Assembly: GCF_024298765.1 (NCBI RefSeq)
Contig: NZ_CP101210.1
From: Escherichia coli
GTDB taxonomy: Bacteria; Pseudomonadota; Gammaproteobacteria; Enterobacterales; Enterobacteriaceae
DNA: 64,000 bases
Direction: 5' to 3' (one strand)
Below the pieces are notes generated by a model. It ran no database searches. It was not told where the DNA came from and saw only the letters and a program-made list of their open reading frames with translations. The translations under genes and the position numbers were made by a program. Shown piece by piece: positions 2,064 to 53,562 of this stretch. The number at the start of each line of letters is the position of its first letter. Position 1 is the first letter of the stretch.

Positions 2064-4418
2064 ATGAAAAAACGTATCCCCACTCTCCTGGCCACCATGA
2101 TTGCCACCGCCCTTTATAGTCAACAGGGACTGGCAGCCGACCTCGCCTCACAGTGCATGTTGGGCGTGCCAAGCTATGACCGTCCTCTGGTACAGGGCGA
2201 TACCAATGACTTACCCGTGACTATCAATGCTGACCACGCGAAAGGGGACTACCCGGATGACGCCGTGTTTACTGGCAGCGTGGATATCATGCAGGGTAAC
2301 AGCCGTCTGCAGGCCGACGAAGTGCAGCTCCATCAAAAAGAGGCACCAGGACAACCGGAGCCGGTGCGTACCGTTGATGCGCTCGGTAATGTCCATTACG
2401 ACGATAACCAGGTGATCCTCAAAGGGCCGAAAGGCTGGGCGAATCTGAACACCAAAGATACCAACGTCTGGGAGGGTGATTACCAGATGGTGGGTCGCCA
2501 GGGCCGCGGTAAAGCGGACCTGATGAAACAACGTGGCGAAAACCGCTATACCATTCTGGATAACGGTAGCTTTACCTCCTGTCTGCCGGGTTCTGATACC
2601 TGGAGCGTGGTAGGTAGCGAAATTATTCATGACCGCGAAGAACAAGTTGCGGAGATCTGGAACGCCCGCTTTAAGGTGGGTCCGGTACCGATCTTTTATA
2701 GCCCCTATTTGCAGTTGCCGGTGGGTGACAAACGTCGCTCTGGTTTCTTGATCCCGAACGCCAAGTACACCACCACCAACTACTTTGAGTTCTACCTGCC
2801 ATATTACTGGAACATCGCGCCAAATATGGATGCCACCATCACGCCGCATTATATGCATCGTCGTGGCAATATCATGTGGGAGAACGAATTCCGCTACCTC
2901 TCCCAGGCGGGCGCTGGCTTGATGGAACTGGACTATCTGCCTTCAGATAAAGTCTATGAAGATGAACACCCGAACGATGACAGTTCACGTCGTTGGTTGT
3001 TCTACTGGAAACACTCCGGGGTCATGGATCAGGTGTGGCGTTTCAACGTCGACTACACCAAAGTCAGCGATCCTAGCTACTTCAATGATTTCGATAACAA
3101 ATACGGTTCCAGTACCGACGGCTACGCAACGCAAAAATTCAGCATTGGCTATGCGGTGCAGAACTTCAATGCCACCGTTTCAACCAAGCAGTTCCAGGTC
3201 TTCAGCGAGCAGAACACCAGTAGCTACTCGGCAGAGCCGCAGTTAGACGTTAACTACTACCAGAATGATGTTGGTCCGTTTGATACGCGTATTTACGGCC
3301 AGGCAGTGCACTTTGTTAACACCAGAGATGACATGCCAGAGGCGACTCGTGTTCACCTGGAACCGACCATCAATCTGCCGCTCTCTAATAACTGGGGCAG
3401 CATCAATACTGAAGCGAAGTTGCTGGCAACCCATTATCAGCAAACCAATCTTGACTGGTATAACTCCAGAAACACGACCAGGCTGGCAGAGTCCGCTAAC
3501 CGTGTAATGCCGCAGTTCAAGGTAGACGGTAGAATGGTCTTCGAGCGTGATATGGAAATGCTGGCGCCGGGCTATACCCAGACACTGGAACCACGCGCGC
3601 AGTATCTGTATGTGCCATATCGCGATCAGAGCAAAATCTATAACTACGACTCTTCGCTGCTGCAATCTGACTACTCCGGCCTGTTCCGGGACCGGACTTA
3701 CGGCGGTCTTGACCGTATTGCCTCCGCTAACCAGGTGACGACCGGTGTCACATCTCGCATATATGATGATGCTGCCGTTGAACGTTTTAATATTTCCGTT
3801 GGTCAAATCTACTATTTCACGGAGTCTCGCACTGGCGATGACAACATAACATGGGAGAATGACGACAAAACGGGCTCACTGGTATGGGCAGGCGATACTT
3901 ACTGGCGCATCTCTGATCGTTGGGGATTGCGTGGCGGGATTCAGTACGATACACGTCTGGATAACGTAGCGACCAGTAACTCCAGCATTGAATACCGTCG
4001 GGATGAAGACCGTCTGGTACAGCTGAATTACCGTTACGCCAGCCCGGAATATATTCAGGCAACGCTGCCTAAGTACTATTCCACTGCTGAGCAATATAAG
4101 AATGGTATTTCGCAGGTAGGAGCCGTCGCCAGCTGGCCAATTGCCGATCGTTGGTCCATTGTTGGGGCCTACTACTACGACACCAATGCGAACAAGCAAG
4201 CCGACTCTATGTTAGGTGTGCAATACAGCTCCTGCTGCTATGCGATTCGCGTCGGTTACGAGCGGAAGCTGAACGGTTGGGATAACGATAAACAACATGC
4301 GGTATATGACAACGCAATCGGCTTTAACATCGAACTTCGCGGCCTGAGCTCCAACTACGGTCTGGGTACGCAAGAGATGCTGCGTTCGAACATTCTGCCG
4401 TATCAAAACACTTTGTGA
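2064..4418 (+). CDS. lptD: LPS assembly outer membrane protein LptD
   Basis: 784-aa ORF, signal peptide, recognised LptD sequence; upstream of surA. Confidence 0.95.
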
Positions 4419-4470
4419 TTTGTTGATTTACCACGTAATCCGCAGTGCGGTTAATTGAAATGGAAAAAGT

Positions 4471-7564
<3,094 letters not shown>

Positions 7565-50836: not shown

Positions 50837-51613
50837 ATGCTGATTCTTATTTCACCTGCGAAAACGCTCGATTACCAAAGCCCGTTGCCCACCACGCGCT
50901 ATACGCTGCCGGAGCTGTTAGACAATTCCCAGCAGTTGATCCATGAAGCGCGGAAACTGACGCCTCCGCAGATTAGCACGCTGATGCGCATCAGCGACAA
51001 ACTGGCGGGTATCAACGCCGCTCGCTTTCATGACTGGCAGCCAGATTTCACGCCAGAGAATGCCCGACAAGCGATTCTGGCATTTAAAGGTGATGTCTAT
51101 ACTGGCTTGCAGGCCGAAACCTTCAGCGAAGACGATTTCGATTTTGCCCAACAGCATTTGCGAATGCTTTCCGGCTTGTATGGCGTACTGCGCCCGCTCG
51201 ATTTAATGCAGCCTTATCGTCTGGAAATGGGGATCCGTCTTGAGAATGCCCGAGGGAAAGATCTGTATCAATTCTGGGGAGATATCATCACCAACAAGCT
51301 GAACGAGGCGCTCGCAGCACAAGGCGATAATGTGGTGATTAATCTGGCGTCAGATGAGTATTTTAAATCGGTGAAGCCGAAGAAATTGAATGCCGAGATT
51401 ATCAAGCCGGTGTTCCTCGATGAGAAGAACGGCAAATTTAAGATCATCAGCTTCTACGCTAAGAAAGCACGCGGTCTGATGAGTCGTTTCATTATTGAAA
51501 ATCGGCTGACCAAACCAGAGCAACTGACTGGTTTTAATAGCGAAGGTTACTTCTTTGATGAAGCTTCCTCCAGCAACGGCGAACTGGTGTTTAAACGCTA
51601 CGAGCAGCGTTAA
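50837..51613 (+). CDS. yaaA: Peroxide stress protein YaaA (UPF0246)
   Basis: 258-aa [20 protein letters not shown]. Confidence 0.92.
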
Positions 51614-51619
51614 GTTTGT

Positions 51620-51760
51620 AGCCAATGCCGGATGCGGCGTGAACGCCTTATCCGGCCTACAAAAGCATGCAGATTCAATATATTGCAGAATTAACGTAGG
51701 CCTGATAAGACGCGCCAGCGTCGCATCAGGCGCTGAATGCCGGATTGTTACCCGGCATTT
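51620..51760. repeat. REP element cluster between convergent yaaA and yaaX
   Basis: GCCGGATGCGGCGTGAACGCCTTATCCGGCCTAC and GTAGGCCTGATAAGACGCGCCAGCGTCGCATCAGGC. Confidence 0.65.
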
Positions 51761-51765
51761 GTCAT

Positions 51766-52062
51766 TTAGCGGTGATGTTTGCCTGGACCATGACCGCCGT
51801 GATGATCATGAGGAGCTTTCTTATGGTGGCGCGGCGGTGGCGGCGGTCCGTGTGGGTGCCAGCGATTGCCTCGCCATTCATAATGTTGTTTCCACCAGCC
51901 GTGGTCGCGCCAGTGACCGCCATCCCAGTAATAGCCACGATTATCACGATCGCCTATCTGTAATTTTACTGACGGGACTAGCGTAATTTCCGCAGCCTGC
52001 GCTGCCATGGGAGCGACCAGAACCAGGGAAAGTGCGAGTACGATAGATTGCATCTTTTTCAC
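51766..52062 (-). CDS. yaaX: Small secreted His/Trp/Pro-rich protein (DUF2502)
   Basis: 98-aa ORF with signal peptide and C-terminal His-rich low-complexity tail. Confidence 0.85.
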
Positions 52063-52219
52063 AGGTTACTCCTTTTATCATTGCCCGTTATGGGTCGATA
52101 TCCGGAGATTACGCGATGAGAACGGCAGTTGTTATTCTCCGCAATCCTAATCTCTAAGTTACCGCATTTATTGAGAATTTCTCCTTTTTCCCTGTCGTTT
52201 TTCTCCATATTTTCTTCAT

Positions 52220-52260
52220 AAAAAAGCCGGGCTGCATAAAAGCAAACCCGGCCTGATTGA
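52220..52260 (-). terminator. thr operon terminator downstream of thrC
   Basis: Minus strand CAGGCCGGGTTTGCTTTTATGCAGCCCGGC followed by TTTTTT. Confidence 0.7.
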
Positions 52261-52275
52261 GATAATGAATAGACG

Positions 52276-53562
52276 TTACTGATGATTCATCATCAATTTA
52301 CGCAACGCAGCAAAATCGGCGGGCAGGTTATGCGAAAGCAAGGGTAAATCAGCACGTTCTGCCAGCTCTTTTGGCAGATCCAACGTTTCACCGAGAATCG
52401 CTTCCACGCTCTCTTTAAATTTCGCCGGATGCGCGGTGCCGAGGAACAAGCCATATTCGCCTGGATTCAACTGGTCACGCAGCGCACGATAAGCTACGGC
52501 AGCGTGCGGCTCCGAGGTATAGCCCAGTTCTTTTAACTCACGCATTGTCTGTTGCGTGGTTTCATCATCCACGGCTGCATACCCCAGCTCTTTCAGTTGC
52601 CAGATTTTGCGGCGGAACAACTCTTCCACACGCGGCCAGTTGTTTGGCTGGCTAACATCCATCGCATTGGATAACGTCGCCTGAGTCGCTTTGGGTGACC
52701 ACTGACCGTCGTGCAGGAAACGTGGCACGGTATCGTTCACGTTGGTCGCAGCAATAAAACGTTTCACCGGCAGACCGAGTGACTTCGCCAGCAGACCCGC
52801 CGTCAAATCGCCGAAGTTTCCGCTTGGCACCGAGACAACCAGCTGGTTGCGCGCTTCCTGCGGCAGCTGCGCAACAGCTTCAAAGTAGTAGCAAATCTGC
52901 GCCAGCAAACGGCTGATGTTAATCGAGTTAGCTGAGTTTAGCCCCAGCGCCACTTTCAGTTCTTCATCATCAAACGCCTGCTTCACCAGCGCCTGACAGG
53001 CATCGAAATCGCCGTCGATGGCAACAGTTTCAATATTGCCGCCCAATGTACAGAACAGTTTTTCTTGCAGTGGACTGATTTTGCCTCGTGGATAGAGGAT
53101 AACCACTTTCACATTCGGCAAACCGTAGAAAGCATGAGCCACTGCCGCTCCGGTATCACCGGAGGTCGCGGTCAGAATGGTCACTGGCTTATCGCCCGCA
53201 ATATGGGTCAGCATTTGTGCCATAAAGCGACCGCCGAAATCTTTAAATGCCAGCGTTGGCCCGTGAAACAACTCCAGACAACCGACATCGCTTTCAACAT
53301 TGGCGACCGGAGCCGGGAAGGCAAACGCCGCGCGTACGCGCTCTTCCAGGATTTCCTGCGGGATTTCATCACCAATAAACGCCGAGAGGATCTTCGCACT
53401 GCGGGTGACAAAATCCAGCTTCAGCATCTCATCAATTTCAGTCAGGCTGAATTCCGGCAGGTCGTGCGGGAAAAACAGCCCCTGATTTTTGCCCAACCCC
53501 TGGGTTACGGCTTGCGCAAAGCTGACCTGCTCATTGTGATCTTTCAGATTGTAGAGTTTCAT
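52276..53562 (-). CDS. thrC: Threonine synthase
   Basis: 428-aa ORF. Confidence 0.97.
   Translation of the reverse strand: MKLYNLKDHNEQVSFAQAVTQGLGKNQGLFFPHDLPEFSLTEIDEMLKLDFVTRSAKILSAFIGDEIPQEILEERVRAAFAFPAPVANVESDVGCLELFHGPTLAFKDFGGRFMAQMLTHIAGDKPVTILTATSGDTGAAVAHAFYGLPNVKVVILYPRGKISPLQEKLFCTLGGNIETVAIDGDFDACQALVKQAFDDEELKVALGLNSANSINISRLLAQICYYFEAVAQLPQEARNQLVVSVPSGNFGDLTAGLLAKSLGLPVKRFIAATNVNDTVPRFLHDGQWSPKATQATLSNAMDVSQPNNWPRVEELFRRKIWQLKELGYAAVDDETTQQTMRELKELGYTSEPHAAVAYRALRDQLNPGEYGLFLGTAHPAKFKESVEAILGETLDLPKELAERADLPLLSHNLPADFAALRKLMMNHQ

Follow-up and report, generated by a model that had tools for sequence, protein, structure and literature searches.

The yaaX gene and its flanking elements

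Positions are counted along the window, that is, the whole stretch of 64,000 nt of Escherichia coli DNA that was analyzed. The open reading frame at 51766-52062 on the minus strand is E. coli yaaX (b0005), located between the thr operon terminator and yaaA. According to the ORF list and the translation, it has 98 codons with a GTG start (52060-52062) and a TAA stop (51766-51768). An earlier note on this DNA had given the same position and length, and the translation was identical to the string quoted there. The Shine-Dalgarno sequence AAGGAG (52069-52074, minus strand) lies 6 nt 5' of the GTG, and AAGGAGT at this site did not vary in an alignment of six genera. A nucleotide search showed that the 701-nt region with yaaX was 100% identical to many E. 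coli chromosomes, and the region was found in 5412 of the 5426 complete E. coli genomes. In the matching chromosomes the RefSeq label was 'yaaX: DUF2502 domain-containing protein' with thrC and yaaA as flanking genes, and the order thrC-yaaX-yaaA-yaaJ was kept in Salmonella, Enterobacter, Citrobacter, Kosakonia, and Buttiauxella. In all, yaaX is already known: it is annotated, it belongs to a named DUF family, and its place in a regulon has been published.

The yaaX frame is under strong purifying selection in the core of the protein, where pN was 0.07-0.12 and pS was 0.74-0.92, which means that synonymous sites were saturated. A 2026 review (PMC13410324) describes a proline-related ribosome pause in yaaX that was detected by Ribo-seq and nascent-chain profiling. 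The five proline codons P73-P77 were located in the sequence at 51832-51846 (minus strand), so a pause at this run means that ribosomes translate the gene at least to codon 73. Two opposite-strand ORFs overlap yaaX (72 aa at 51745-51963 and 143 aa at 51555-51986), but the Shine-Dalgarno sequence, the synteny, the selection in the yaaX frame, and the ribosome pause explain them away.

The intrinsic terminator of the thr operon was identified by sequence and RNA folding at 52220-52253 (minus strand), with a GC-rich hairpin at 52226-52253 and a T-run (T6) at 52220-52225. It follows thrC directly and ends 158 nt before the yaaX start codon is reached, and its RNA fold had a dG of -20.6 kcal/mol (z = -3.1). 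The earlier note had rightly placed yaaX next to this terminator. A simple terminator scan missed it, probably owing to an internal mismatch in the stem, and since this terminator is well known, negative results of that scan are not to be trusted. The same scan, with this unreliability for negatives, reported no minus-strand promoter at the locus. On the other side of the gene, 7 nt past the yaaX stop codon, RNA folding revealed the hairpin AATGCCGGGTAACAATCCGGCATT at 51736-51759 (strand unassigned), and the region 51700-51775 folded with -35.4 kcal/mol (z = -5.1). The hairpin of the window, which has an equivalent in E. coli IHE3034, likely stops transcription between yaaX and yaaA, two genes that converge here. 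With the thr terminator upstream and a second hairpin after the stop codon, yaaX is a self-contained unit convergent with yaaA, and it is a genuine, translated, monocistronic gene.

Upstream of the gene, the alignment of six genera revealed a conserved 54-nt block, GAAATTCTCAATAAATGCGGTAACTTAGAGATTAGGATTGCGGAGAATAACAAC, at 52128-52181 (minus strand). Within it TTAGGATTGC and TAAATGCGG were invariant, and GAATAACAAC also belongs to this near-invariant block, which on sequence grounds is presumably a candidate promoter and regulator-binding region. A search of the block for the canonical RcsB box was negative.

Several smaller elements were also seen around the gene. The yaaX leader has a small CCC-N5-GGG hairpin (52083-52096, minus strand) about 10 nt before the Shine-Dalgarno sequence, with a conserved stem and a variable loop in the six genera, and an Rfam search of the leader gave no matches. 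The 152-nt spacer between yaaX and yaaA carries REP/BIME-type palindromic elements (51592-51757), which account for the approximately 39 places per genome matched by megablast. Rfam gave sub-threshold naRNA4 matches at 51592-51657 and 51699-51757 and an ES036 match just above the gathering score at 51661-51703, and the spacer of IHE3034 is 39 nt long and has no REP/BIME-type elements. On the plus strand, a direct repeat with 11-bp spacing (TCTCCATAT and then TCTTCATAA, 52202-52221) abuts the T-run of the thr terminator. This repeat may resemble BaeR boxes (TCTNCANAA). A literature search for the BaeR-box motif returned only primers, and in the excerpt found on BaeR overexpression only 8 genes were induced and yaaX was not named among them.

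Signal peptide, core, and tail of YaaX

YaaX is rich in His (13 of 98 residues, against 2.6% in the background; binomial P = 1.7e-6), Trp (6 of 98, against 1.2%; P = 1.2e-3), and Pro (10 of 98, against 4.0%; P = 6e-3), where the background was the long ORFs of the same window. So the richness in these three residues that the earlier note had reported was reproduced for the whole protein, but the residues proved to be distributed differently over its parts.

Codons 1-23 (51994-52062, minus strand) encode a predicted signal peptide with cleavage after AQA, which was assigned by rule, from inspection by eye, hydropathy, and the A-x-A motif. The N-terminus consists of MKK, a 16-residue hydrophobic stretch with Kyte-Doolittle values up to 2.95, and AQA|AE. 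It thus has the charged n-region, the h-region, and the small residues at -3 and -1 of a Sec/signal peptidase I substrate and no lipobox Cys, in agreement with the signal peptide proposed before. In 18 orthologues A23 and P18 were invariant, and the mature N-terminus (A/S/E)EITL was conserved. The lipobox L-(A/S)-(G/A)-C was absent and none of the 98 residues is a cysteine, so YaaX is not a lipoprotein.

The conserved DUF2502 core was delimited by alignments, AlphaFold2, and pN/pS to codons 24-70 (51853-51993, minus strand). The alignments comprised 18 orthologues, 47 diverse family members, and 16 close Escherichia-like sequences. A homology search matched residues 25-73 to Pfam PF10697 (DUF2502) with 52 bits, above the cut-off of 27 (E = 8.4e-14), and all 47 diverse relatives matched PF10697 and no other Pfam family. 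YaaX carries the family motif IGDRDxxGxYWDGxxWRDxxWW behind its signal peptide. In the alignment of the 47 DUF2502 sequences, G37, G43, and W46 were invariant, and P18, A23, P30, D40, Y45, D47, G48, W51, and W57 were at least 90% conserved. All six Trp residues of YaaX are in the core, in two YxWxGxxW hairpins, and the two units YYWDGGHW and YEWRGNRW are related, with 6 of 16 positions in common.

AlphaFold2 predicted the core with high confidence and the tail with low confidence. In the full-length model pLDDT was 88-96 for residues 31-70 and about 55-57 for the tail, and the core modeled alone had a mean pLDDT of 87.9 and a pTM of 0.65. The predicted core has a beta-hairpin at its N-terminal side, then the GDRD motif and a pair of aromatic hairpins linked by a seven-residue helix. 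No structural or sequence similarity to the core was found among PDB chains. A WW domain (two Trp residues about 22 residues apart and a proline-rich partner) was considered and rejected: there was no Pfam match, the prediction has a helix midway along the core, and the proline run is no conserved feature.

Codons 71-98 (51769-51852, minus strand) form a variable low-complexity tail with 9 His, 7 Pro, and 5 Gly, which was recognized by its entropy, pLDDT, and pN. Its entropy was 2.46 bits, compared with 3.86 bits for the core. The 50-residue low-complexity tail of the earlier note (residues 49-98) is therefore low-complexity only from residue 71 on; residues 49-70 belong to the conserved core, and Trp had been wrongly counted as part of the tail. 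Tail pN was 0.38-0.53 against four of five other genera and 0.19 against Citrobacter, with pS saturated. Sequence and length of the tail vary between genera, while richness in His and Asp is retained: the tails of the 18 orthologues contain 28% His, 21% Asp, 14% Arg, and 11% Gly, and every one of them has 5-10 His in 23-41 residues. The tails have net charges between -7 and +4, mostly neutral or acidic, so with a steady His content the conserved property is the His content and not the charge, and it is a lineage-specific trait that the K-12-type tail of E. coli is net positive. Proline richness likewise held for this protein but not for the family, being specific to Escherichia: the proline run is missing outside Escherichia-like sequences and reads PPPSP in a second E. 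coli allele. We consider it likely that the core, and not the tail, carries the conserved function of YaaX.

The two tail alleles of E. coli are a new observation. Megablast found the K-12-type tail in 3996 genomes and the IHE3034-type tail (PYGPPPSPRHNKHNDHRGDHRPEPDKHHR) in 1388. The two match lists were compared by their totals and not intersected, and these sum to 5384 of the 5426 genomes, so the alleles are probably mutually exclusive. The second type is IHE3034/ATCC 11775-like, and the RefSeq name yaaX is given only to the K-12-like type. In one strain pair, the window and IHE3034 (B2), the divergence starts sharply at codon 71: codons 1-70 had no difference in 210 nt, but codons 71-98 (51769-51852 of the window against 1711-1794 of the IHE3034 locus, L001) differed at 30 of 87 nt with codon indels, and the pS and pN of the tail were 0.39 and 0.17. 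Together with codons 1-70, the preceding region (approximately 52063-53000, the 3' half of thrC and the intergenic region) had 1 difference in about 1,070 nt, and on the other side yaaA and yaaJ differed at 21 of 777 and 13 of 615 nt (2-3%). Such a pattern points to a boundary of recombination or to a repeat region that evolves fast locally, and the sequence comparison would fit a recombination tract or sweep that ends at yaaX codon 70. The IHE3034-type tail is nearer to the tail of E. marmotae, so the K-12 type looks derived.

Regulation and relatives of yaaX

The envelope-associated role proposed for YaaX in the earlier note is backed by published expression data. Overexpression of RcsB raised yaaX 1.9-fold, and the RcsB regulon list includes it as a putative periplasmic protein (PMC2731931). 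Colicin M raised it by a log2 of 4.12, together with wca genes, osmB, ivy, and spy (PMC3599342). An inhibitor of LolCDE raised it 8-12-fold, with the table label 'RpoS stress induced' (PMC5105897), and an Rcs reporter plasmid was built with the promoter of the Serratia homologue (PMC8470065). Since membership in the Rcs regulon was published in 2009, the regulation of yaaX is not a blank. Its biochemical function was rightly called uncharacterized: the only name is DUF2502, and the E. coli literature, in the excerpts found, gives expression or sequence data only and reports no phenotype or biochemical activity. Taken together, YaaX is very probably a real, exported, Rcs-induced DUF2502 protein.

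The RcsB box, as defined from structure, is the pseudo-palindrome TN(G/A)GAN4TC(T/C)NA (PMC7913699). A search of the intergenic region between thrC and yaaX in six genera gave no site that matched 7 or more of the 8 specified positions, where shuffled sequence had 0.59 such sites on average, and this region had only two direct RcsB half-sites, TTAGA and TAGGA. Without a canonical box, Rcs control of yaaX may be indirect, heteromeric, or non-canonical. RcsB boxes have been mapped for several Rcs-induced genes, such as osmB, but none was found upstream of yaaX. The Rcs-induced proteins Ivy, OsmB, Bdm, YmgD/YmgG, and YaiY were co-induced with yaaX in the same published experiments and are mostly small envelope proteins as well, but they have no homology to YaaX.

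DUF2502 is a narrow family: a profile search of 1.84 billion proteins gave 117 representatives at 50% identity. The named members that were examined were mostly from Enterobacterales (Enterobacteriaceae, Brenneria, Rouxiella, and Chimaeribacter), and members outside this order came from one gammaproteobacterial metagenome-assembled genome (MAG) and from Azonexus. E. coli has one paralogue of yaaX, ypeC (b2390). YpeC has the same signal peptide and core (75.6% nucleotide identity over the core), is likewise small and monocistronic, and is annotated as periplasmic. Its gene was raised 42-60-fold by the LolCDE inhibitor in the same experiment as yaaX (PMC5105897). Its tail differs from that of YaaX, being rich in Arg, Gly, Trp, and Asp with fewer His, and ypeC is a direct MarA/SoxS target. 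In E. coli, ypeC (1435-1761 of locus L002) and mntH, which encodes an Nramp transporter, converge; this adjacency is kept in Rouxiella and has been described for Salmonella.

The neighborhoods of distant homologues (Brenneria, Rouxiella, the gammaproteobacterial MAG, and Azonexus) had no common partner gene. In Rouxiella (locus L009), a DUF2502 gene with two repeats at 4001-4513 stands in the order ipdC-like, gpr-like, DUF2502, Nramp. The MAG locus (L010, 1-4375) is a single case in which about 3 kb separate the DUF2502 gene from an ECF sigma/anti-sigma pair and from genes whose Pfam domains are BufA1 and MbnB/TglH/ChrH. Three small ORFs with no Pfam match precede DUF2502. BufA1/MbnB pairs are bufferin-type, copper-related peptide systems. 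Several distant members (P0154, P0165, P0175, P0188, and P0199) have the conserved ending CPPGQAKKG(N/R)C and not a His-rich tail, and this ending is possibly a disulfide loop. In many others the YYWDGxxWRDxxWW unit (RGYYWDGxxWRDxxWW) is clearly duplicated.

Possible roles of the core and the tail

The fifth gene on the E. coli K-12 map, yaaX still belongs to the 'y-genes' that have no function assigned. Knowing what the two DUF2502 proteins YaaX and YpeC do would close a gap in the picture of the Rcs envelope-stress response and, for YpeC, of the Mar/Sox response too. The practical gain is modest because the analysis did not reveal the function of yaaX, but the question has been narrowed in four respects: the conserved unit is the Trp-rich core and not the His/Pro tail, the conserved property of the tail is richness in His and Asp and not proline or positive charge, the upstream region has no canonical RcsB box, and the species has two tail alleles that can be compared directly in experiments.

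The explanation that we favor, by a little over an even chance when it is taken as a whole, is that YaaX is a Sec-exported periplasmic protein with a functional core and a His/Asp tail for divalent cations or pH titration. YaaX would be exported by Sec, cleaved after AQA, and soluble in the periplasm. According to the literature, its transcription rises with the RcsB response to envelope stress, after peptidoglycan damage or when lipoprotein sorting is blocked. The conserved core would then act as a functional module that binds some envelope partner or ligand, and the tail might bind divalent cations (Zn, Ni, Cu) with low specificity or be an appendage that is titrated by pH, as His-rich segments (tails or loops) do in SlyD, ZnuA, and ZraP. 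That the tails keep their richness in His and Asp without keeping their sequence is plausibly compatible with metal binding, so far as composition can indicate it. No recognized metal-binding motif or family in Pfam or NCBIfam was matched by YaaX. In a study of silver-adapted cusS mutants, yaaX was among 23 genes, together with zraP and cusCFBA, that were changed in all of these mutants in LB (PMC10920338), and this co-regulation with zraP and the cus genes is a weak link to metals. The earlier note had suggested metal binding from the composition; we propose only tentatively that such binding by the tail matters physiologically.

The fast evolution of the tail and the difference between the two alleles would be expected just as well of a tail without a specific function. 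It might be a neutral, disordered solubility or spacer 'bristle' in which His arose by drift in codon repeats (CAT/CAC/GAT/CGT/GGC), with all function in the core, and we regard this as possible but rather doubtful. Such a tail would account for the difficulty of alignment across genera, the many indels and the pN of 0.38-0.53 (0.19 against Citrobacter), for E. coli alleles that differ at 30 of 87 nt behind 210 identical nt, for distant DUF2502 members whose tails are Gln-rich, Gly-rich, or end in CPPGQAKKGxC, and for the Arg/Gly/Trp/Asp-rich tail of YpeC. However, neutral drift hardly agrees with the persistence of 5-10 His in all 18 orthologues despite synonymous saturation in most genus pairs, with the recurrence of a C-terminal ending like G-P-(G/D)-x-x-H-H, or with a dN/dS of about 0.35, and not 1, within E. 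coli. A charged tail offers another account, in which the K-12-type tail would be a cationic, pH-switchable anchor on LPS or phospholipid head groups, peptidoglycan, or Rcs-induced colanic acid and the Trp/Tyr-rich core a small carbohydrate-binding module. The estimated net charge of mature YaaX is about +6 at pH 7 and +15 at pH 5.5, mostly from the tail, yaaX is co-induced with colanic-acid genes, and glycan binders typically show exposed aromatic residues in hairpins. But a positive charge is not conserved in the tails, whose values lie between -7 and +4, and the core was not found to resemble any known carbohydrate-binding module in structure or sequence, which makes this account improbable.

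We give hardly any credence to yaaX being a chance ORF, being kept for another reason, or acting as a regulator through stalling at PPPPP. The pause documented at the five-proline run and the opposite-strand ORFs could be read in this direction. But selection in the yaaX frame is strong while synonymous sites are saturated, the Shine-Dalgarno sequence and the signal peptide are conserved, and Pfam recognizes the family in 47 of 47 diverse members, so a non-functional ORF is refuted for practical purposes. A regulatory proline stall is unlikely because the run is absent in other genera and is PPPSP in a quarter of E. coli genomes, and because the downstream gene yaaA is convergent, which leaves no co-directional gene to regulate. 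The probability that remains beyond the metal, neutral, and polyanion or glycan readings belongs to something not yet imagined. More speculatively, and with little likelihood in our view, DUF2502 could be a previously undescribed periplasmic mini-fold, made of the two Trp-rich YxWxGxxW hairpins, that protects the envelope in Rcs stress by binding a specific envelope component or metal. Selection on an exposed segment prone to interactions, and not neutral drift, would in that case lie behind the sharp two-allele polymorphism of the tail, and host metal restriction, colicins, or phage would be candidate pressures.

Two groups of known proteins are useful for comparison with the favored combination of core and His/Asp tail. 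Spy, CpxP, and ZraP are, like YaaX, small, Sec-exported, and induced by envelope stress, and the induced gene sets that contain yaaX also include ZraP and Spy. In ZraP, zinc is bound by motifs that contain His. But Spy, CpxP, and ZraP are LTxxQ proteins with an all-helical fold, whereas the prediction for YaaX is mostly beta-hairpins, and YaaX has no sequence or fold relation to them. Pfam gave no match of YaaX to the Spy/CpxP/ZraP family, and NCBIfam gave only sub-threshold matches, all to the signal peptide (Spy, 11.9 bits against a cut-off of 174, E = 0.2, residues 1-28). SlyD, HypB, ZnuA, and ZinT contain disordered stretches of 20-50 residues that are dominated by His with Asp, Glu, and Gly. 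These proteins have a domain of known metal-related function and their metal binding has been measured, whereas YaaX is known by composition alone; but their His-dominated stretches are similar to the YaaX tail in that the composition is conserved and the sequence is poorly conserved.
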